Part shown: positions 4,388-20,000 of the stretch, in pieces
Numbering within the stretch: the first letter of the stretch is position 1
Layout: each line of letters opens with the position of its first letter
Source of the DNA: an uncultured virus (IMG/VR IMGVR_UViG_3300046616_000384)
Lineage: Duplodnaviria > Heunggongvirae > Uroviricota > Caudoviricetes
Virus record (IMG/VR): IMGVR_UViG_3300046616_000384
Direction: 5' to 3' (one strand)
DNA: 20,000 nucleotides
Notes under the pieces: model-generated
The model's database searches: none
What the model saw: the letters and a program-made list of their open reading frames with translations, nothing else
Told to the model about the DNA's origin: nothing
Made by a program: the position numbers and the translations under genes

Positions 4388-4612
4388 TCATTCTTGCGAG
4401 TCGATGGCTGTGTCCAGCATCCACCGGGCCTCGTGAAAAGCACCCCGCCCGGCGAACGTGGTGGAGTCCACTTCTTCACCCCGGGCGTTGGTGACGACCA
4501 CCCGGGCGCGGTCCCCGTCCACCGTAAGGGACGCCGTGTAGCCGTCCTTGCTCAGGACCCACACCCCGTGCGAAGTGTTGCGGAACTCCGTTGACTCGGG
4601 CCTAGTGCTCAT
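4388..4612 (-). CDS. Hypothetical protein
   Basis: GGAGG RBS, overlaps the upstream gene end. Alternative start at 4618. Confidence 0.6.
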   Translation of the reverse strand: MSTRPESTEFRNTSHGVWVLSKDGYTASLTVDGDRARVVVTNARGEEVDSTTFAGRGAFHEARWMLDTAIDSQE

Positions 4613-4985
4613 GCCCATGCGCCTCCGGGGTGTCGAACGGGGTGATGCCGCCGTGGTCCTTGGCCCAGTCGGTGATCTTGATCCCCTTCTCGTGGACCTG
4701 CTCCAGGTCCCCGGTGCCGTCGGCCTTGTCCGGGCCTCGCCGGCTGATGACGATGCCCTCCTCGTCCACATGGAGGTGGTTGTGCTCACCGTCCCAGTAG
4801 TCGGTGTGGTTGTGGGTACCGTCGGACTCGAAGTCGACGTTCATGCCGAACGCGCCGCCGTACTCGACACTGAAGCCGTCCAGTTCGGTGACGCCGGCCT
4901 TGACCATGTCGGCGATCTGGTGCAGCTGCTTGGCCGCCCGCTTGGAGTTCAGCTCCGTGCCGGCGATGTTGATGAATATTTCCAT
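4602..4985 (-). CDS. Acidic His-rich hypothetical protein
   Basis: GAGGAG RBS. Internal repeat DGTHNH/DGEHNH and C-terminal HGHEH. Confidence 0.7.
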   Translation of the reverse strand: MEIFINIAGTELNSKRAAKQLHQIADMVKAGVTELDGFSVEYGGAFGMNVDFESDGTHNHTDYWDGEHNHLHVDEEGIVISRRGPDKADGTGDLEQVHEKGIKITDWAKDHGGITPFDTPEAHGHEH

Positions 4986-5439: not shown

Positions 5440-5642
5440 GACGGGTTCTCCTCCTCGATCATCTTGATGAGGGTGAAGTGGGGGAGCAGGAAGATGCCGT
5501 CCACGAACGTGTCCTCCCCGTCCTCCACCGCTGACATGTCGTGCCAGCCGTCCATGCCCCGGGCCCAGGTGGTGCCCCGGGAGTCGGTGTAGCGCCGCTC
5601 CTCGAAGGCCCGCTTCACGGCCGGGTTGCTGTTCAGGCTCAC
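5436..5642 (-). CDS. Hypothetical protein
   Basis: GTGA overlap with the upstream stop. Confidence 0.55.
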   Translation of the reverse strand: MSLNSNPAVKRAFEERRYTDSRGTTWARGMDGWHDMSAVEDGEDTFVDGIFLLPHFTLIKMIEEENPS

Positions 5643-8635: not shown

Positions 8636-9574
8636 GTGGCTAAGAAAAAGATCATCGTCAACACGGCGCACGTCGTCATGCTTGAGAAGCCGTCGAAGCT
8701 GGTCGAGCTTCACGCCAAGGAATTCAGCATCGACCTGAAGGTCCAGCGCATCCTCAATGAGGCACGTGCCGACGCCATGGCCGACAAGTTCCAGCCCCAT
8801 GCCCTCGGCATGGTCACCGCCTCTAAGCGAGAGGACGGTCACGTTTATTTGCTGGACGGCGCGCACCGAATCTCTGCCGCCCGCAAGGCTAATTACGAGG
8901 GGCTCATCGCCACCCGCCTGTTCGAGAACCTCACCGTGCAGGAGGAGGCGGAGCTGTTCCTCTCGCTGAACTCCTCCCGTGCAGTCCAGGCCATTGACCG
9001 CTTCAAGGTCCGCATCACGCAGGGCGAGCCGGTCGCCGTCGGCATCAACAACGTGCTCAAGGCCTACGGCCTGCACGTCGAGTGGGCCAACAACGAATCC
9101 CTCGGCGTCATCTCTGCCATCGCCGCACTGGAGCACGTCTACCACGGCGCCGGCGTCTGGAAGAAGGGTGACTACCCCGACCTCGTCGACAAGGTCATCC
9201 GCTCCCTGTACCGTGCGTACGGCGAGAAGGCCGAGCGTGCCACGTACTCCAAGATCATGCTCGAAGGGCTCGGCATCTTCTGCGCCAGCTTCGGTGCACG
9301 CATCGACTACGACCGGCTCCAGTATGTGCTGGAGGGCACCGTGCCCCGCCAGATTGCGGTCCAGGCACGCACTCTGCGCGATGCCCGCGGCAAGAAAAAC
9401 GCCGCCGGCCTCGGCCGTGCCGCCGCCGAGGTCATCCACCAGATGTACAACCACCGCTTCAAGGCCAAGCTGCCCGAGTTCGGTGCCGTGGACGTGCTCA
9501 ACGCCCTGCCCGAGGGACCGGCCTACGACCAGGACCCCCTGTACGTGGACGCCAACCAGTACGTCACCGCCTAG
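8636..9574 (+). CDS. ParB/Sulfiredoxin-like (DGQHR-type, DUF6551-like) protein
   Basis: 'ID.KVQR.LN....MA..F...ALG.VT.SKREDGHVYLLDGAHR' N-terminal domain, GGAGG RBS, strong GC3 codon bias on the + strand. Confidence 0.75.
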   Translation: MAKKKIIVNTAHVVMLEKPSKLVELHAKEFSIDLKVQRILNEARADAMADKFQPHALGMVTASKREDGHVYLLDGAHRISAARKANYEGLIATRLFENLTVQEEAELFLSLNSSRAVQAIDRFKVRITQGEPVAVGINNVLKAYGLHVEWANNESLGVISAIAALEHVYHGAGVWKKGDYPDLVDKVIRSLYRAYGEKAERATYSKIMLEGLGIFCASFGARIDYDRLQYVLEGTVPRQIAVQARTLRDARGKKNAAGLGRAAAEVIHQMYNHRFKAKLPEFGAVDVLNALPEGPAYDQDPLYVDANQYVTA

Positions 9575-12210: not shown

Positions 12211-13386
12211 TCAGAGTGCGAAGGCCAGTTCAAGCGCCTTCAGCGATTGTGCCTCCATGTCGGCGGCCTTGTCAGCGTCACGGGTGGTCTGTGCCGCTGC
12301 CGTGACAGCCTGCATCACGCCGCCGGCGGTGAACTGCCCGCCCTTGACGAATGCGTTGAAGATGGCGTCCTGCTGTTCCTGGTCGAAGGACAGCTTCTTC
12401 GCCACCACGCGGACGTCCTCGACGTCCTCGATCTTCTTGCCCGCCTTCTGCTCCATCTCCCGGATGACCCGGACCATGTAGTCCTTGTCGAGGAACGTGG
12501 CCACCGCATCACGGGCACGGGCCGTGACCAGCGCCAGCTGCTTGTCGATGGTATCCCGGGACCAGTTGATGACCCCCTCGTCCATCTTCCCGCCGAGGTG
12601 GACCGCCTTCATGGCATCCCTGGCAATCGTCATGCCGTTGGAGCACACCTGGACGATGATCCGGGGCGTGACAGAGAAGGACCCGTCACCCGTCTCGGAG
12701 TTGGAGAGCACGAACCCGGCAAAGACCGTCGGGTTGTCGGTTCCCGTCTCTCCGGAGAAGGGGGAGCGGTAGCCCCTCAGCAGCTCCGGCGCCAGCGCCT
12801 GCACCTCCGGTGCCTTGATGCGGACGTACATCCTCCGGTCGGTCAGGTCGCACCCCTCGATCTCGACGTGCACACCTGCCTGCCGGATGCCGTCCAGTGC
12901 CGCAGTCAGGGCATCCAGATTGTCCATGATGGCGAACCTGTCCGATAGAAGGGCGCGGGCAATGCCGTGTCCCCCATCATCTCCCCGGAAAGCACGCACC
13001 AGGAAGCTCCGGCCGTCGGGCTGGATGAGCTGGACGCTCGTCCCTGCCGTCTTGTCGTAGCGGCTCAGCCCTCGGAGCAGGCCATTGGCGTTCTGGTCGT
13101 AGAGGTCAGGGCGCTCGTTGCGCATGAACCTCACGTACGCCAGCGGGATGCCCAGCTTGGACGCCACGCCTTCATCGAAGACGGCGGTCGGCAGGTAGAT
13201 CCCGTTGACGTCAGTCACGCCGCTGGCATCGAACACCGGGTCCATGCCGGAAAGCACAAGCCTTCCGTCCCTGAACCTCAGCTTCTGCGCCGGGGCGACC
13301 ACATCGAGCTTCCGTGCGTGCTGCTCCATCAGAGCATCGCGCAGGTCACTCAGGCCCGCATTCCGGGCCTCGGTTATCAGTGTCAT
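12211..13386 (-). CDS. DUF932-like phage/plasmid protein
   Basis: 391 aa. 'ARALLSDRF..MDN', 'LTDRRMYVRI', 'AGFVLSNSETGDGS..V.P.....VCSNGM' are characteristic of this family. Confidence 0.75.
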   Translation of the reverse strand: MTLITEARNAGLSDLRDALMEQHARKLDVVAPAQKLRFRDGRLVLSGMDPVFDASGVTDVNGIYLPTAVFDEGVASKLGIPLAYVRFMRNERPDLYDQNANGLLRGLSRYDKTAGTSVQLIQPDGRSFLVRAFRGDDGGHGIARALLSDRFAIMDNLDALTAALDGIRQAGVHVEIEGCDLTDRRMYVRIKAPEVQALAPELLRGYRSPFSGETGTDNPTVFAGFVLSNSETGDGSFSVTPRIIVQVCSNGMTIARDAMKAVHLGGKMDEGVINWSRDTIDKQLALVTARARDAVATFLDKDYMVRVIREMEQKAGKKIEDVEDVRVVAKKLSFDQEQQDAIFNAFVKGGQFTAGGVMQAVTAAAQTTRDADKAADMEAQSLKALELAFAL

Positions 13387-13429: not shown

Positions 13430-13852
13430 TCACCACCACGCCCAGTAGACGTAGACGGCGGATGGATCCCAGTGCTCCAGGATCTCGGTGAACTCCTTCA
13501 GTTCCGTCTCGATGTCGCTGAAATACCACTCGTCGAAGTCGGTATTGCCGAAGAAGAATCCAGCCTGCGTCGGCAGGAGCACACCGGCCTGCGAGTGGTC
13601 GTCCCTGACCTTGGTCAGCCGTTCCACCAGACGCTCGATGTGCTCACGCTCCAGCGGCAGGTAGGCGCAGTTCTCAACCTCGCCGACCTCACCCTCCATG
13701 TAGCACTGGATGTGGTTCTCCTTGCGCCCGGTCCAGAGCTGCACCTCATCGTCGGGGGCGGGGTACGGCGCCTCATGGTCGCCTTCCTCCCAGTTCCGGA
13801 TCAGGGCATAGGATGCCCGGCTCAGCCGGCGGACTGCTTGATCAAGTCCCAT
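13430..13852 (-). CDS. Conserved phage hypothetical protein (MGLD...RK.N.I...LLPTQ.GFFFG...DEWY family)
   Basis: Recognisable motif series. AGGAGG RBS. Confidence 0.8.
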   Translation of the reverse strand: MGLDQAVRRLSRASYALIRNWEEGDHEAPYPAPDDEVQLWTGRKENHIQCYMEGEVGEVENCAYLPLEREHIERLVERLTKVRDDHSQAGVLLPTQAGFFFGNTDFDEWYFSDIETELKEFTEILEHWDPSAVYVYWAWW

Positions 13853-13873
13853 TGCTTACCTCCTGTTGTTGTT

Positions 13874-13933
13874 CCGTGCTGACTGCACGTGACCCCCGGC
13901 GGATCTCTCCACCGGGGACCATGCGCCTTCAGT
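13874..13933 (-). repeat. 60-bp intergenic hairpin element, copy 1
   Basis: 54/60 identical to 15460-15519. Long stem capped by a GAGA tetraloop. Confidence 0.85.
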
Positions 13934-14160
13934 TAGTCGACGCGACCGCCTCGGGTCCATGCCCGGGTCTGGCCGGAGCGGGCGATACCCGCCACCTGGC
14001 CGCCGAACCGTCCCCGGCTCGTCCCTGCCGTCACCTTGGCCACCTTGGTGGTGGCGCACGATGAAAGCAGGATCTCGTCGGCCAGCTGGTCGGCGTCAGG
14101 CCGGTCGAAGTCCGGCAGAACCGGGGCGACGACGGGTGCTTCAGTGAGTGCTACGGACAT
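13933..14160 (-). CDS. Small protein with acidic N-half and Arg/Gly-rich C-half
   Basis: AAGGAG RBS, fills the gap between two conserved genes. Confidence 0.6.
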   Translation of the reverse strand: MSVALTEAPVVAPVLPDFDRPDADQLADEILLSSCATTKVAKVTAGTSRGRFGGQVAGIARSGQTRAWTRGGRVD

Positions 14161-14199
14161 TTGTTTCTCCTTCTGGTTGGGTACTGCATCTTTTTTTGG

Positions 14200-15435
14200 T
14201 TACCGCCGGACGACCGAGTCGGGGACGGTGTTCTTGATGATGAGGTGCCACGTCTGGCCGTCTCCCAGCTTGCGGGCGACGTGGTCCTTCTCACGGCCGA
14301 TGGGGTCGTGGTACAGCTGGCCCCTGGCGAGCGTTGAGCCATTGGGCATCCGTGCCACCTCTGTGGCGCGGTGGTTGGTGCCCAGCAACATGGCGCGGGG
14401 CTCTTGACCCCGTTCGCGCATCTCGCTGCGCTTCTCGAAGGCGGCCCCCATCTTGCGAAGGGTGCGCCTGTCGAATGATGGTGCGGCGATAGCGAAGATG
14501 TCACCCTGCCTGCTGATCTTGCGGCCCATCTGCTCGGCCAGCAGGACCGGCTCGGGCTTCAGGAACTCGTAGGCTTCAGCGACGGTGGTTGGTTTCACCC
14601 TTGGAGGCATCTCGGCGAAGAAATACAGCGGCATCGGCTCCTGATGGTCGAAACCTGACAGGAAGTAGGCCCACCGGTGGTGTTCCTTGCCGTCCTCGGT
14701 CTTCCACGTCACCTTGGCATAAATCAGGGACTCTCCCAGCCAGTGGTGGTGTGTCTCCCACTCGTACACCGTTCCCTCATCGGTGTTGGTGACGGTGATC
14801 TCGGGAGACCACGTGCGCCTGTTGGTCCGGAGGACCTGCTTTGTGCCGACCTTGCGCTGCTCGAACTTGGCCCATTCGGGGAAGTCATCCACCGTGTACT
14901 TCCTGCCGCCGTGGCGGCCGTCGTACCATGGAAACTTCTTCAGCCACGCGGCCCGCTCCTCGCGGGTCAGCTCGAAGCTCTGCATGATCGGCTCGTTATG
15001 CCAGATGGCACCCGATGGGAACTCCTTCGTCCGGTGGTGGATCTCCTCGTTCCGGTCCGGGAGCACGTCGATGATCTTGATGGAGTCAATCTCAACGCCG
15101 GACTCTTCCAGAGCCGTGAACGGGATGATCACCTGCTTGCGGCCGACGAGGTGGTTGCGCACCCACGCCTGATGCGTTGTGGTGCCGCCCCCTCCCCAGC
15201 CCCAGCCGCCGCCCCCAAAATTGAAGGGGACTCGCAGCTCGTCTCCGTTGAGGATGTAGTGGGTGACCTTGCCGCTCTTGTTCTTGATCGCTCGCACCAG
15301 CTCAAAGTTGCGGTCGAAAGCATACAGCCTGCCGTCGTACACGGGGATGCGTGGGTTCCACAGATGCTTCTCTGCGGCGCCTTCGGTGACGTCCACCCAC
15401 CTCCTCGCAACGTCTGAGATGGTGTTACTTCCCAT
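14200..15435 (-). CDS. Hypothetical protein with C-terminal RQGD...H...H...H domain
   Basis: 411 aa, AAGGAGGAG RBS, Gly-rich segment GGGGWGWGGGG, 'RQGDIFA' motif. Confidence 0.75.
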   Translation of the reverse strand: MGSNTISDVARRWVDVTEGAAEKHLWNPRIPVYDGRLYAFDRNFELVRAIKNKSGKVTHYILNGDELRVPFNFGGGGWGWGGGGTTTHQAWVRNHLVGRKQVIIPFTALEESGVEIDSIKIIDVLPDRNEEIHHRTKEFPSGAIWHNEPIMQSFELTREERAAWLKKFPWYDGRHGGRKYTVDDFPEWAKFEQRKVGTKQVLRTNRRTWSPEITVTNTDEGTVYEWETHHHWLGESLIYAKVTWKTEDGKEHHRWAYFLSGFDHQEPMPLYFFAEMPPRVKPTTVAEAYEFLKPEPVLLAEQMGRKISRQGDIFAIAAPSFDRRTLRKMGAAFEKRSEMRERGQEPRAMLLGTNHRATEVARMPNGSTLARGQLYHDPIGREKDHVARKLGDGQTWHLIIKNTVPDSVVRR

Positions 15436-15459
15436 TGCTCCTCCTTTTTTGTTGGGATG

Positions 15460-15519
15460 CCGTGCTGACTGCACGTGGCCCTCAGCGGATCTCTCCGCTG
15501 GGGACTATGCGCCTTCAGT
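15460..15519 (-). repeat. 60-bp intergenic hairpin element, copy 2
   Basis: 54/60 identical to 13874-13933. Overlaps the TGA stop of the upstream gene. Confidence 0.85.
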
Positions 15520-15808: not shown

Positions 15809-16086
15809 TCGCCCACCTCCTCCAGCTCATGGCTCATGAGCCAGAAGATCCTCGGCCCTTCGGGGTCCCATGCCCACGCGGGGAGCAGGAGCAGGATGAT
15901 GTCGTTCTCATCCGTCCTGTCGATCTCCACGCGGTACTGGGTGATCCGCTCGCCCTCGTCAGACCACGACTCGCCGACCGTGACCACGGTGCCTGTCAGG
16001 CCCACGTAGTCCGGCGCGCTGTCGTACCTGCTGGGTACGCATCGCACCCTGGCCCCTACGGCCAGTGTCTCAGTGGTTGTACTCAT
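15805..16086 (-). CDS. Hypothetical protein, possible SH3/KOW-like barrel
   Basis: 'VGARVR....G.TGTVV.V.....YRVEID' pattern. AAGGAGGGAG RBS. Confidence 0.6.
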   Translation of the reverse strand: MSTTTETLAVGARVRCVPSRYDSAPDYVGLTGTVVTVGESWSDEGERITQYRVEIDRTDENDIILLLLPAWAWDPEGPRIFWLMSHELEEVGE

Positions 16087-16162
16087 GCTCCCTCCTTCTC
16101 CGATCTCCATAGAACGGCTGGCAGGCAGGGCATCTCAGCCCTGCCCGCCCGTCGGCCTGTGG

Positions 16163-16510
16163 TTACTCTCCTTCCTCGTCGATCATCATGCGCTCCAGCA
16201 TGGCGCGCTCCTCGAAGCCCTGGGCGTCGGCGCGTATGTCAGCCATCATCAGCAGGTTCATGCGCCAGACGACCTCGTGCTCCTCTAGACCGTCCTCGTG
16301 GGTCCGGATGTTCGCCGGGTTTGACGGGTCTGCGCCGAAGGTGACCACCCGCGCCATGTAGTGGCCGCAGTCGCTGAAGTACGCGACGTACAGGTCAAAC
16401 CCTGCATGCGGGAAGGACATCTGAATGGCGAGCCCGGAGGCCGCGTTGGCCCGGAGGTGGGCCAGCGTCTCCTCAGCGGTGCCCGTGGCCGTATCTCCTT
16501 CGTGTGCCAT
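16163..16510 (-). CDS. Hypothetical protein
   Basis: AAGGAG RBS before ATG 16510. Confidence 0.65.
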   Translation of the reverse strand: MAHEGDTATGTAEETLAHLRANAASGLAIQMSFPHAGFDLYVAYFSDCGHYMARVVTFGADPSNPANIRTHEDGLEEHEVVWRMNLLMMADIRADAQGFEERAMLERMMIDEEGE

Positions 16511-16600
16511 GTTCCACTCCTTCTCTGTGGTTCTGTGGACGGTCCACAAAACTCATGACAGGCCGGGAAGCTCCCGGCCTGCCATGCGCCCGGTGGTGTG

Positions 16601-16942
16601 TCAGACTCCGAGTTCGACGATCTGCTCCACCGCCTCGTTGCCTTCGGCCAACGCGCCGAACAGGGCCTCAAAGTCCCCGTCGCGGCTCGCGATGGCCGCC
16701 GTCTCTCGGCAGGCGAGGAGCGTCAGCCGGGGGATGAGTTGATCGGCGGACAGGTCCGTCTCTTCAATGTCGTCCATGCCCGGTGCTGACGCCTTGATGC
16801 TGAACGTCTCCGCGTCCGCGTCGTACTTGGCTTCAAGGTGCGTCTCCGAGACGGGAAAGTCGATCACGGCAGTCTCACCTGGGTGGGCCTGCATGTCCGC
16901 AACCGTCTCGGCGGCGTTACCCTTGAATGCGCCTTCAGTCAT
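16601..16942 (-). CDS. Acidic hypothetical protein
   Basis: AAAGGAG RBS. Confidence 0.7.
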   Translation of the reverse strand: MTEGAFKGNAAETVADMQAHPGETAVIDFPVSETHLEAKYDADAETFSIKASAPGMDDIEETDLSADQLIPRLTLLACRETAAIASRDGDFEALFGALAEGNEAVEQIVELGV

Positions 16943-17039
16943 GGTGTGCTCCTTTCATCGGTTCTGTGGCGTGTCCATAGAACTCCCAACCGATTGAGGG
17001 TCTGAGTCTCAGTCGGCCGGGCGCTCGGTGGCGACTTGG

Positions 17040-17342
17040 TTACATCAGGAAGTCCAGCGGGTCGCCGTCTCCGACGGCTTCCTCGAAGGCTTCAAAGTCG
17101 TTGGCCAGAAGCGCCGCCTCCGCCTCCGCCTTGCGGTCCCTCTCGGGCGCGTCGGTACCGGCCACGATGAGCTTCTGTCCCTTGCCGGTGCCCAGTTCAC
17201 CCGACGTCTGAGAGCGGAAGTGATCATCACAGACGTAGGCCCAGGGACCGTGCAGGGTCTTGGCGTCATACGCGGCCTTGACCGGTTCCGCGTGCGGAAG
17301 CTGGCAGTCAGGCAGCTCAACGACAATTGCTGTAGTTCCCAT
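17040..17342 (-). CDS. Conserved phage Zn-binding hypothetical (YDAKT..GPWA..C..H...LG.G.GQ family)
   Basis: Recognisable motif. GGAG RBS before ATG 17342. Confidence 0.7.
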   Translation of the reverse strand: MGTTAIVVELPDCQLPHAEPVKAAYDAKTLHGPWAYVCDDHFRSQTSGELGTGKGQKLIVAGTDAPERDRKAEAEAALLANDFEAFEEAVGDGDPLDFLM

Positions 17343-17361: not shown

Positions 17362-17434
17362 TCACCCCCGCACCTCGCGCGGGGGGTTGGTGGGAATTCA
17401 CCACTGCGTCTCACCTCCGCACCTCGCGCGGGGG
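17362..17434 (-). repeat. Tandem hairpins sharing a 24-bp near-identical core
   Basis: TCACC(C/T)CCGCACCTCGCGCGGGGG at 17362-17385 and 17411-17434. Confidence 0.8.
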
Positions 17435-17777: not shown

Positions 17778-17815
17778 TGTCGTTTTCCGATCTGTTGTTT
17801 GCCTATGAAACAAGC

Positions 17816-18090
17816 CTGCCCGGACTGTCAAGTCCGGAAAACCGGTTACGCGGTCCGTCGCGCGTTCCCGCGCGGGTGCGCGCCCGGCGGCGGGCAACCG
17901 ATAGCAAGCTATCGGAATGTTCCGCCGGCGATAGTTGACTATCGCTTTTTGGTGTTCATCCTGGTTGAAGATTCAATTGAAGATTCAATGAATGTTCGAA
18001 CCTGGTAGCTAACTATCGGTTTATCCTCCCTCCGGTTTGTTTTCTGATTCCAGACTGCCCGGACTGTCAAGCGTGAAAAACCGGTTACGC
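17816..18090. promoter_or_regulatory. Divergent control region with duplicated 36-bp element and three 18-bp palindromic operator-like sites
   Basis: CTGCCCGGACTGTCAAG-N5-AAAACCGGTTACGC at 17816 and 18055. CGATAG-N4-CTATCG at 17898 and 17928, degenerate at 18002. Confidence 0.75.
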
Positions 18091-18160: not shown

Positions 18161-19198
18161 ATGGCAACGGCAAGCTATGAGGCGGTCAAATTGCGTAAGC
18201 AAATTGCCCGGGATATGGGAATACGCCTATCGGCGTTGAAAATCCCGGCAATGCCGGAAAATGCAAAAGACGTAAACCGCCGGGCGGATAACGTGGCGGA
18301 AAAATTCGGCACGTTCGGAATTGACCGTGAAATGAATGAATGGTCAACGGCGCTACGGGACGTTATGCGGGAAAACCACACCGCGATTATGGCGCGGAAA
18401 ATCACCCGGGCAATTCCGGCAACAAAAGCCGCGCTAGTCACAACGAAAATCGGTTATGACGTAGTGACAATTTCCCGCGTGGAAAAAGCCGCTAACGTCG
18501 ATTCAATCCGCCGCCAATTGGCAAAAGCGATTGAGCGCGAAAATGCGGCAATGGCGGCACGGGAGGCGGCGGAAGAATTAGAGGCACGTAAGACAAACCT
18601 AGAACGGGCACCAAAAGCCGTTAAAGCCGCCTCTAAGCGCCGTTCAGTGCTGGCAGACAGGGAACATGCCCGTGTGCGCTTTTTGCGCCGCAAATTGGCA
18701 CGTGCCGCCTCCCAACGGGTAGCAAACAATCTCACCTATTCCCGCGTTGGGGATGTGAGGCTTTCACTCAATCCGCAATCAATGGCAAATCAGGTTGCGC
18801 GGCTTGTGGCGGATATTCCAGACAGGAAAGACGTGCACCCATTTAGGGAATTGCCGCGAATCAGGAAAGTGACTGGCACAACGGCAACGGCAATAATCGG
18901 AAAGCCGGAAAACGAATTGATCTGGCAGGAAGACAAAGCCGTTCTAGACGCCGCCCGGAAAGAACGGGACGAAAAAGCGGCGGCGGAAAAAGCCCGAATT
19001 GCGGCAATAGAGGCGGCGGAAGAAAAAGCCCGGAAAGCCGCATTAGAGGCGGCTCGAATTGAGCGCCGTAATCAGCGCCGAATTGATAACGCGGAAAAAT
19101 ATGAGGCAACGCGAATTGCCGCTAATGCCCGTAGGGCACTTGCCGCGAAAATCCGCCGGGAAAATGCAAAGCACAAACAACCTAAGAAAATGCGTTAG
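18161..19198 (+). CDS. Basic Ala/Arg/Lys-rich coiled-coil hypothetical protein
   Basis: 345-aa ORF with strong RBS (AGGGAGG) and a terminator directly downstream. Atypical A-rich codon usage. Confidence 0.75.
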   Translation: MATASYEAVKLRKQIARDMGIRLSALKIPAMPENAKDVNRRADNVAEKFGTFGIDREMNEWSTALRDVMRENHTAIMARKITRAIPATKAALVTTKIGYDVVTISRVEKAANVDSIRRQLAKAIERENAAMAAREAAEELEARKTNLERAPKAVKAASKRRSVLADREHARVRFLRRKLARAASQRVANNLTYSRVGDVRLSLNPQSMANQVARLVADIPDRKDVHPFRELPRIRKVTGTTATAIIGKPENELIWQEDKAVLDAARKERDEKAAAEKARIAAIEAAEEKARKAALEAARIERRNQRRIDNAEKYEATRIAANARRALAAKIRRENAKHKQPKKMR

Positions 19199-19211
19199 GC
19201 AATTCTGAATT

Positions 19212-19243
19212 AGCGGCCCCGGTAATTACCGGGGCCGCTTTTT
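19212..19243 (+). terminator. Intrinsic terminator
   Basis: Perfect 28-bp palindrome AGCGGCCCCGGTAATTACCGGGGCCGCT running into a T tract, 13 bp after the stop. Confidence 0.85.
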
Positions 19244-19279: not shown

Positions 19280-20000
19280 TAATTCAATTGTTCGCACCAG
19301 GTAACTTTTATGTTCGGCCTGGCGAACTCTATTGTTCGCCCTGGCGAAACCCAATTGTTAGGCGCACCTCAATTGGTAGTCCACTTCCACTTGCCAGTTG
19401 GTGGGGATGTAGGACATCCTACGTCCATGTTGGGCCGGCTCAACACTAGAGGTAGGACATCCTATGTCCGTGCCGGCCGGAACATTGTTAGGCTACCTAA
19501 TAGTTGCACCTTCAACCAGGGCGAACACCTGACATAGGACGTCCCAGATCCTACCCTGTTGCAGCGGGAACACTGGCACGTTGGGACATGCATAATCATG
19601 CGGATACCCAAAAGCCCCAAAAGCCCCTGACAAGCCCCTGACGGCCCCTTAGAGGCTCTAACTATGTGTCCGTGTGTACGTGGCTTGGATGGGTCTTTTT
19701 AGGCTCTTAGAATGGCACACACGGTTGTTCTCATTTTGCTCACGTTGTAAACAACACCACTGTAATTCGCATACGTGCATAACTAATCATCTGACATATG
19801 ACATCATATGTATGCGTATGCGGATATGTACATACGCGCATATGTATATATGCACATACATGCAACCAGGGCGAACATATGCCCACATAGGGATATGCAG
19901 GGTGCACATATAACCAGGTGCGAACATAACCGGACAAGTATATTGCCGGCGGAACATATACGGGTGGGGGACGTCCCACGTCCTACGTCACGGGGCCGCC
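19280..20000. repeat. Non-coding repeat-rich region (candidate terminus/origin/centromere)
   Basis: Six TGTTCG-N1-2-CC(T/A)GG(T/C) copies, four copies or partial copies of a TAGGACRTCCTAYGTC-like site, an AAGCCCC tandem array and alternating purine-pyrimidine tracts. Confidence 0.7.

Follow-up and report, generated by a model that had tools for sequence, protein, structure and literature searches.

Processing hairpins are a kind of signal familiar from phage T7, whose RNase III sites are related, irregular hairpins of about two helical turns lying between a stop codon and a ribosome binding site (RBS) in the early polycistronic region. According to PMC1540722, Escherichia coli RNase III is indifferent to loop sequence and needs at least 11 bp, typically two helical turns. 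The RNase III of Streptomyces coelicolor has a preference for G-C duplex, makes its cut next to an internal loop and, by cutting rpsO-pnp, shortens the life of that transcript; the RNase J of this species has 5'-3' exonuclease activity and favours monophosphate ends (PMC10126417). A different type of element is found in the PeSL cassettes of T4-type phages, repeated intergenic stem-loops where variable early-region genes swap; PeSLs, which form mini-circles, combine an effective terminator with a strong sigma-70-like promoter (Arbiol 2010, PMC2839356; Comeau 2014, PMC4122927).

Here we describe a pair of 60-nt hairpins in the window, that is, the whole 20,000-nt stretch of DNA analysed, which forms the right end of a 64,382-bp virus record. 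Like T7 early signals such as R1.1, the elements are irregular hairpins of about two turns in the slot between stop codon and RBS of a putative early polycistronic region, and, as in R1.1, the loop sequence is free and at least 11 bp stand above a small internal loop (compare PMC1540722). Unlike the T7 sites, they are GC-rich, do not carry the E. coli boxes and belong to a presumed actinobacterial host; whereas T7 has one site per gene, only two copies occur here, bracketing one cassette, and the cut is predicted. With the S. coelicolor rpsO-pnp hairpin they share an intergenic position, GC-rich composition, an internal loop and an actinobacterial setting, but that hairpin has a 4/4 loop and its cut destabilises the message (PMC10126417), whereas 1x1 and 2x2 loops are found here. 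As with PeSLs, genes are exchanged at repeated intergenic stem-loops in a variable early region; unlike PeSLs, the element has neither promoter nor U tract, is present in two copies only and was not seen in looped-out form in four runs.

No published description of these elements was found in a search that covered mostly the open literature; SEA-PHAGES genome papers or their supplements may touch on the Gordonia repeats described below. Look-ups of the terms hairpin, stem-loop and terminator in PMC5559632 returned no mention, and for actinobacterial phages the search turned up almost nothing on early-region signals of mRNA processing. The element is a real, uncatalogued hairpin, and the repeated bracketing of one cassette is its distinctive point. 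This tie to a single cassette, which in other lineages is bracketed by unrelated twin hairpins, was missed in the first-pass annotation.

Genomic setting and fold of the hairpin pair

The capsid protein encoded by the virus is at most 38% identical to Streptomyces phage capsids, with further matches to Mycobacterium, Arthrobacter, Microbacterium and Gordonia phages. Because these matches are both distant and actinophage-wide, we regard the phage as an actinophage without a close listed relative. The sole hint of its host, and the whole of the link to it, is the binning as Arthrobacter sp. of a contig (L063) that carries a 92%-identical homologue of the 411-aa gene described below; the Arthrobacter MAG containing L063 encodes RNase III. 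The hairpin pair sits within a leftward series of small genes, which we infer to be the early region, below promoter-like repeats at 17806-17851 and 18045-18090 (minus strand). TTGACA is present in these repeats and a clear -10 is absent; they are probably leftward early promoters. They are 46 nt long and 83% identical, with a possible operator over the -35. Coordinates of the main features are given in Table 1.

Table 1 Features of the hairpin pair, the bracketed cassette and its neighbours (positions in the window)
Feature	Position	Strand	Remark
Upstream hairpin copy	15460..15519	-	Includes stop codon (TGA) of 97-aa gene
Downstream hairpin copy	13874..13933	-	Directly 3' of 75-aa gene stop
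15-nt inverted repeat, upstream copy	15461..15475	-	Element positions 45-59; 5 bp, 5-nt loop
15-nt inverted repeat, downstream copy	13875..13889	-	Counterpart of 15461..15475
97-aa gene, upstream neighbour here and in L015	15515..15808	-	Different hairpins after it in L063, no element in run X15
A/C-rich spacer and Shine-Dalgarno of 411-aa gene	15436..15459	-	Sequence unrelated between relatives
411-aa gene, first gene of cassette	14200..15435	-	phrog_29643; no Pfam family
75-aa gene, second gene of cassette	13933..14160	-	Conserved terminal W..GxVD-stop
A/C-rich spacer and Shine-Dalgarno of 140-aa gene	13853..13873	-	Follows downstream hairpin copy
140-aa gene, downstream neighbour	13430..13852	-	phrog_7971; missing from slot in L015, L063 and run X2
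DUF932 gene (391 aa)	12211..13386	-	Directly after element in L015 and L063

Other intergenic structures were observed in the window and in related loci. A second family (16516-16605 and 16939-17045, minus strand) pairs a long hairpin with a short one behind it, and its two members have 26 nt of their 3' part in common (16529-16554 and 16960-16985); its relatives in L063 lie at ~5490-5570 and ~4545-4640, one of them occupying the slot held by the 60-nt element in the window. Tandem 24-nt repeats (17362-17385 and 17411-17434, 96% identical) lie inside GC-rich hairpins between two early genes, and another strong U-less intergenic hairpin, of unrelated sequence, lies at 16085-16168. At 1-1300 of the locus L009, short hairpin repeats that are GC-rich and have TTCG loops form a dense array. 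Elsewhere in the window, the plus strand carries a ParA-like gene with a small partner (1-643) and a separate ParB-like/DUF6551 gene (8636-9574), which may serve plasmid-like maintenance. An end region of lower GC (18161-19239 and 19674-19980) holds, on the plus strand, a 345-aa Ala/Arg/Lys-rich ORF followed by a two-way terminator-like hairpin, beyond which AT/GC dinucleotide-repeat palindromes gave rise to spurious miRNA matches.

The two copies of the element are 54/60 identical at the positions originally reported, and the earlier tally of their six differences, all of them transitions, was correct. With the element numbered 1-60 on the minus strand, position i pairs with position 57-i. 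A compensatory change (G-C/A-U) separates the copies at pair 21-36, pairs 15-42 and 23-34 are G.U in one copy and Watson-Crick in the other, and pairs 14-43 and 19-38 are mismatched in the upstream copy. The helix comprises 22 pairs over 25 positions. In the upstream copy it is laid out as 4 bp, a 2x2 purine loop, 4 bp with an invariant G.U, an A.C mismatch and a 14-position upper stem capped by a GAGA loop, with a 3' tail. Folding z-scores were -5.95 and -4.14, with 0/200 shuffles equally stable. Hairpin strength alone does not set the element apart, its downstream copy coming 12th among 60-nt windows on the minus strand of the genome. Judged from the window alone the strand is ambiguous, the upstream copy folding better on the plus strand (-33.4 vs -30.8 kcal/mol); when the homologues are included, folding favours the mRNA strand in 5/6 copies.

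Both copies start at the stop of the upstream gene (the downstream one at the final base of the TAA of the 75-aa gene) and end ahead of an A/C-rich spacer and AGGAGG, much as the first-pass annotation had described. Its view that the element is not a standard terminator also stands: a U tract is absent on both strands and a terminator scan reported neither copy. The Rfam search that it proposed as a check returned no family at either copy at E<=5. No GenBank phage was matched by blastn with the element, and no copies besides these two were found in the 64,382-bp genome. The first 13 nt of the element are repeated exactly at 16927-16939, at the start of a 113-aa gene; this 13-mer has 3 matches in the window and 0 in 200 shuffles, and the additional match is possibly chance or a recombination relic.

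Homologous copies, covariation and the 3' tail

Homologues were sought in the surroundings of 411-aa gene relatives (5 viral and 34 metagenomic loci). These yielded three new copies: L015 has one in each of the two slots, and L021 has one in the upstream slot. A gene-blind DNA pattern run over genome contigs gave 22 matches, one of which was real (L063, downstream slot); the other 21 were judged by their fold to be chance, L064 scoring merely E 0.21. Patterns run over viral contigs gave 1, 2 and 5 matches, all rejected as chance by sequence context, fold or model score, and the best of them (E 0.043) was missing the upper stem. In total, six copies were available (window 2, L015 2, L021 1, L063 1). 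A covariance model from relatives, as had been suggested at the outset, was built from five copies. Over 47 sources its matches below E 0.2 were these six copies alone, and for five of them the match follows by construction.

Across the six copies the stem base (positions 2-13 and 44-59) is near-invariant: the G.U at 10-47 and the A.C at 12-45 are fixed, and the purine loop is 2x2 except in L021, where it is 1x1. Above the base, the stem stays at 13-14 pairs while its sequence and loop vary; a bulge in the L015 downstream copy shifts the register. The GAGA tetraloop, initially named as a feature of the element, is not conserved, GAGA being found in 3/6 copies and a GNRA loop in 4/6. Both-sided changes were found in 5/22 pairs across the six copies, which bears out the claim of covariation in a structured RNA on the mRNA strand. 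In the true register 93.2% of cells were paired, compared to 30-50% in slid-register controls, and RNAalifold yielded the same fold. The covariation score was matched by 1/500 shuffles, a fraction that is not a p-value given the relatedness of the sequences. All of this covariation is confined to the upper stem; because the basal 8 pairs show no two-sided change, basal pairing lacks independent support.

The invariant 3' part of the element forms a 15-nt inverted repeat (Table 1) whose arms (45-49 / 55-59) are perfect and identical in 6/6 copies. Once freed, this 15-nt hairpin has a folding energy of -7.0 to -7.5 kcal/mol. As part of the uncut RNA, the 5-bp hairpin wins over the long stem in 1/6 copies only; because its arms are invariant, it has no support from covariation. 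Such invariance in a tail that is left unpaired calls for an explanation, and could reflect a DNA operator (a 15-bp dyad at positions 45-59, just upstream of the RBS) or a small self-cleaving ribozyme. For an operator, the dyad is too restricted in distribution, its exact matches in the genome lying inside the two copies and its 2 one-mismatch matches lying 35-39 kb from the elements in the left half of the genome; no promoter overlaps it, and stoperator-like genome-wide repeats were not found at 11-13 nt. Known ribozymes have multi-stem cores, whereas the element is a single hairpin, and none of the Rfam ribozyme, riboswitch or cis-element models matched it. We consider either function highly improbable.

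The bracketed cassette in this and other phages

All six copies flank the cassette formed by the 411-aa and 75-aa genes. Three of the four new copies were found via the 411-aa gene; the copy in L063, found by the gene-blind pattern, likewise flanks the cassette. The 411-aa protein has 254 homologues among those found, with an invariant RQGD motif and several invariant His, and a region of its C-terminal part is common to 446 cluster representatives; this part may resemble small RQGD proteins beside DUF6745 genes. Because the W..GxVD end of the 75-aa gene is fused to the large protein in some loci (L010, L033, L036), the two genes look like one split unit. A CxxC zinc-finger insertion was observed in some 411-aa homologues. 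Pfam gave no family for the 411-aa query and zinc-finger-type insertions in few members (27/120 aligned proteins scanned), no solved structure of a 411-aa relative was found, and Atlas returned 411-aa matches under 0.9, to viral clusters without names, and nothing usable for the 75-aa protein.

The neighbourhood of the cassette differs between relatives. The downstream copy is followed in the window by the 140-aa gene. DUF932 takes this place in L015, in L063 and in run X2, and an unlike sequence does so in run X15. Behind the 97-aa gene, the window and L015 have the element, L063 has a different pair of hairpins, and run X15 has no element there but retains part of it 5' of the large gene. 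Compared with L015, the window shows 75% and 92% identity in the flanking proteins and 45% and 58% in the cassette proteins, and the element is 83-90% conserved. Between the window and L063, cassette proteins are 92% and 97% identical and the upstream gene 60%. Since DUF932 is equally close in L015 and L063 (92%, 94%), the cassette must have been exchanged in one lineage. Nucleotide identity between relatives stops at the 3' edge of the element, with joints at 13875 (run X2) and 15519 (run X15). In addition, positions 9 and 51 carry the same alleles in both copies of a genome, and the top of the window's upstream copy recurs in the downstream copy of L063, upper stems thus being mixed between slots; this pattern suggests exchange between copies.

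The first-pass annotation had proposed that the repeats let the intervening block recombine in or out. This is half borne out. Relatives do differ in their cassette alleles and in the genes next to them, and the boundaries of these differences lie at the elements; the predicted loss of the 1,586-bp block went unseen. No joint skipping it was found in contigs of four runs (24 listed), and neither were excised circles or deletions between the copies, contigs being assemblies that drop rare forms. Gene exchange at the element, a trait of PeSLs, is therefore present, the link to the element as its cause being correlative, while the embedded sigma-70-like promoter of PeSLs was searched for in the element and not found. 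The contrasts in identity between flanks and cassette, the joints and the alleles shared within genomes could all be read as signs that the elements serve chiefly in recombination, as PeSL-like cassette ends that shuffling and gene conversion maintain, the RNA fold being secondary. This is very unlikely in our view: the compensatory changes point to selection on a single-stranded fold, no joint skipping the block was recovered in the four runs, and in the Gordonia phages described below the upstream and downstream copies remain distinct from phage to phage. Mosaic phages are in any case expected to have breakpoints at gene borders.

We extended the comparison to 44 non-duplicate loci (four duplicates dropped), 37 of which show the final W..GxVD stop of the cassette. 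A hairpin with z<=-2 was present in the 70-nt stretch after this last stop in 29/37 loci, compared to 30/154 control stops; the control stops were called automatically and the loci are related. These post-cassette hairpins are mostly unrelated in sequence, and their sequences are interchangeable at the downstream slot. A significant repeat between the upstream and downstream sides occurred in 8 of the 24 loci with both sides, and in seven it represented hairpin twins, which were absent in 17/24. The eighth, in L011, lies next to the ribosome binding site, is not a hairpin twin and was left out of the seven.

The seven twin loci fall into three unrelated families: the window and L015 (family 1), the Gordonia phages Culver, WilliamBoone, OneUp and BrutonGaster (family 2), and Gordonia phage Daredevil (family 3). 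In family 2 the hairpin has successive helices of 5, 5 and 14 bp, with a 2x2 loop after the first and a 2x1 loop after the second, and 8/24 pairs changed on both sides, with 0/500 shuffles as high. Its full hairpin occurs only at the two cassette flanks in those genomes, its 9-nt core at the flanks and in scattered matches at control level, and BLAST returned one or both flanks and one 26-nt partial match. The basal 13-mer of Daredevil has exact matches at the two flanks only. In all five Gordonia phages the twin hairpins resemble those of the window in occupying the same two slots, in stem and loop geometry and in having a conserved base and a variable top. They differ from the window family in showing no sequence kinship with it (no model match in L003 at E<=5 or in L079-L082 at E<=1), and their tops carry motifs present at other intergenic sites. 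None of them is annotated in the phage records.

A sigma-70-like promoter match upstream of the cassette was found in 3/24 loci, compared to 12/960 background windows, and in no twin locus. Since upstream promoters occur only outside the twin-hairpin loci, the cassette behaves as a delimited unit, and its message looks like one delimited 3' by a hairpin and 5' by a hairpin or a promoter. In Daredevil (L080 and neighbours, ~87.8-88.6 kb), an asymmetric ~18-nt motif was observed after three early stop codons; it is also the top of the downstream hairpin, and an ArdA-like anti-restriction gene follows the cassette. In the Microbacterium phages SadLad and OneinaGillian (L001, L002), an 18-nt palindrome is repeated ahead of several early start codons; the cassette has a promoter immediately 5' of it and is followed by a long hairpin that is shared. 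A panhandle or circle, formed by the 3' arm of the upstream copy and the 5' arm of the downstream copy, was considered and is not favoured, the inner cross-pair being weaker than both own folds in 6/7 twin sets and intermediate in the window.

Strong GC-rich hairpins that begin right at stop codons, with interchangeable sequences at the downstream slot, might also act as U-less (I-shaped) intrinsic terminators or pause sites that step down early-operon transcription without cleavage; terminators without U tracts have been proposed for actinobacteria. We regard this as unlikely, given that neither strand has a U tract, that the stretch from the element to the next gene holds no promoter match in any of the 7 twin loci, and that several further hairpins lie upstream in the same operon. 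The invariant, loop-interrupted base and the fixed stem length would also be needless for a terminator.

The consistent flanking of the cassette, also by the copy found without reference to the gene, together with an invariant stem base and three unrelated twin families, each confined to both places as far as tested, would fit hairpins that are bound or cut by the cassette's own product in feedback on its own mRNA, site and protein co-diverging. Such co-divergence is not what the relatives display. The element is well conserved between the window and L015 even though the large protein is only 45% identical, whereas the closest relative, L063 (92%), has a different upstream hairpin and L014 (69%, best segment) a different downstream hairpin. 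Most loci with both sides have no twin at all, and no known RNA-binding or nuclease family was found in the cassette proteins. We therefore think feedback of this type quite unlikely. Equally doubtful is the broader proposal of a self-contained protein-RNA module, rebuilt at least three times, in which the product would recognise and perhaps cut or shield the twin hairpins; it would cover Arthrobacter-like and Gordonia phages, with brackets derived from unrelated sequence.

A proposed boundary for the cassette message

The reading that we favour, with a probability of roughly 55%, is that the two hairpins set and protect the ends of the two-gene cassette message within the early transcript, probably via an RNase III-type cut. 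A role in boundary and protection, with or without a cut, is likely, and the predicted RNase III cut itself is tentative, falling somewhat short of even odds. This reading builds on features observed directly, namely the fold, its covariation, the place between stop codon and ribosome binding site and the tie to the cassette. The first-pass annotation had offered mRNA processing, stabilisation or antiterminator loading as possible functions; the element is indeed built like a processing or stabilising hairpin, and antiterminator loading found no support.

Under the favoured reading, the region would be transcribed as one polycistronic RNA from the promoter-like sites near 17.8-18.1 kb, and host RNase III would bind the irregular 22-pair helix and probably cut it. 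Cleavage near positions 13-16 / 43-46 would release the 3' arm, and the arm could then refold into the 5-bp hairpin. The downstream message would thus begin with this hairpin, followed by an open spacer and the ribosome binding site, which would be of consequence where the host has RNase J. If one strand alone were cut, the upstream message would keep a 3' stem; alternatively, an uncut helix may act as a nuclease roadblock. As a by-product, the conserved 60 nt would offer homology for the exchange of cassette alleles and neighbouring genes.

Several traits of RNase III sites were compared with the element. The helix, with 22 pairs and a 14-position upper stem above a small loop, is long enough for the enzyme; 6/6 copies occupy an intergenic slot between stop codon and ribosome binding site, in genes that are presumably co-transcribed; and a covarying structure with free loop sequence is seen in the upper stem only. 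The E. coli distal and proximal boxes reached at most 2/6 in the upper half and at most 3/6 in a truncated lower register (6 registers, 6 copies), by rules that are those of E. coli and may not fit the actinobacterial enzyme. Given the preference of the S. coelicolor enzyme for G-C duplex, the absence of the boxes weakens the case for membership among RNase III sites without excluding the mechanism. The destabilisation of rpsO-pnp by RNase III in S. coelicolor would count against a protective cut, and the rpsO-pnp hairpin of the Arthrobacter MAG showed no sequence likeness by eye and no match with the covariance model. We therefore propose the element as an mRNA-boundary hairpin that may work like a T7 early RNase III signal, as a candidate rather than a proven RNase III site.

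These results provide a defined, covarying 60-nt candidate for an early-region mRNA processing signal in actinobacterial phages. Its counterparts in five cultured Gordonia phages occur where RNA ends can be mapped directly. Finally, the repeated presence of twin hairpins, or of a promoter and a hairpin, around one cassette marks a separately tuned early product that is worth functional study.
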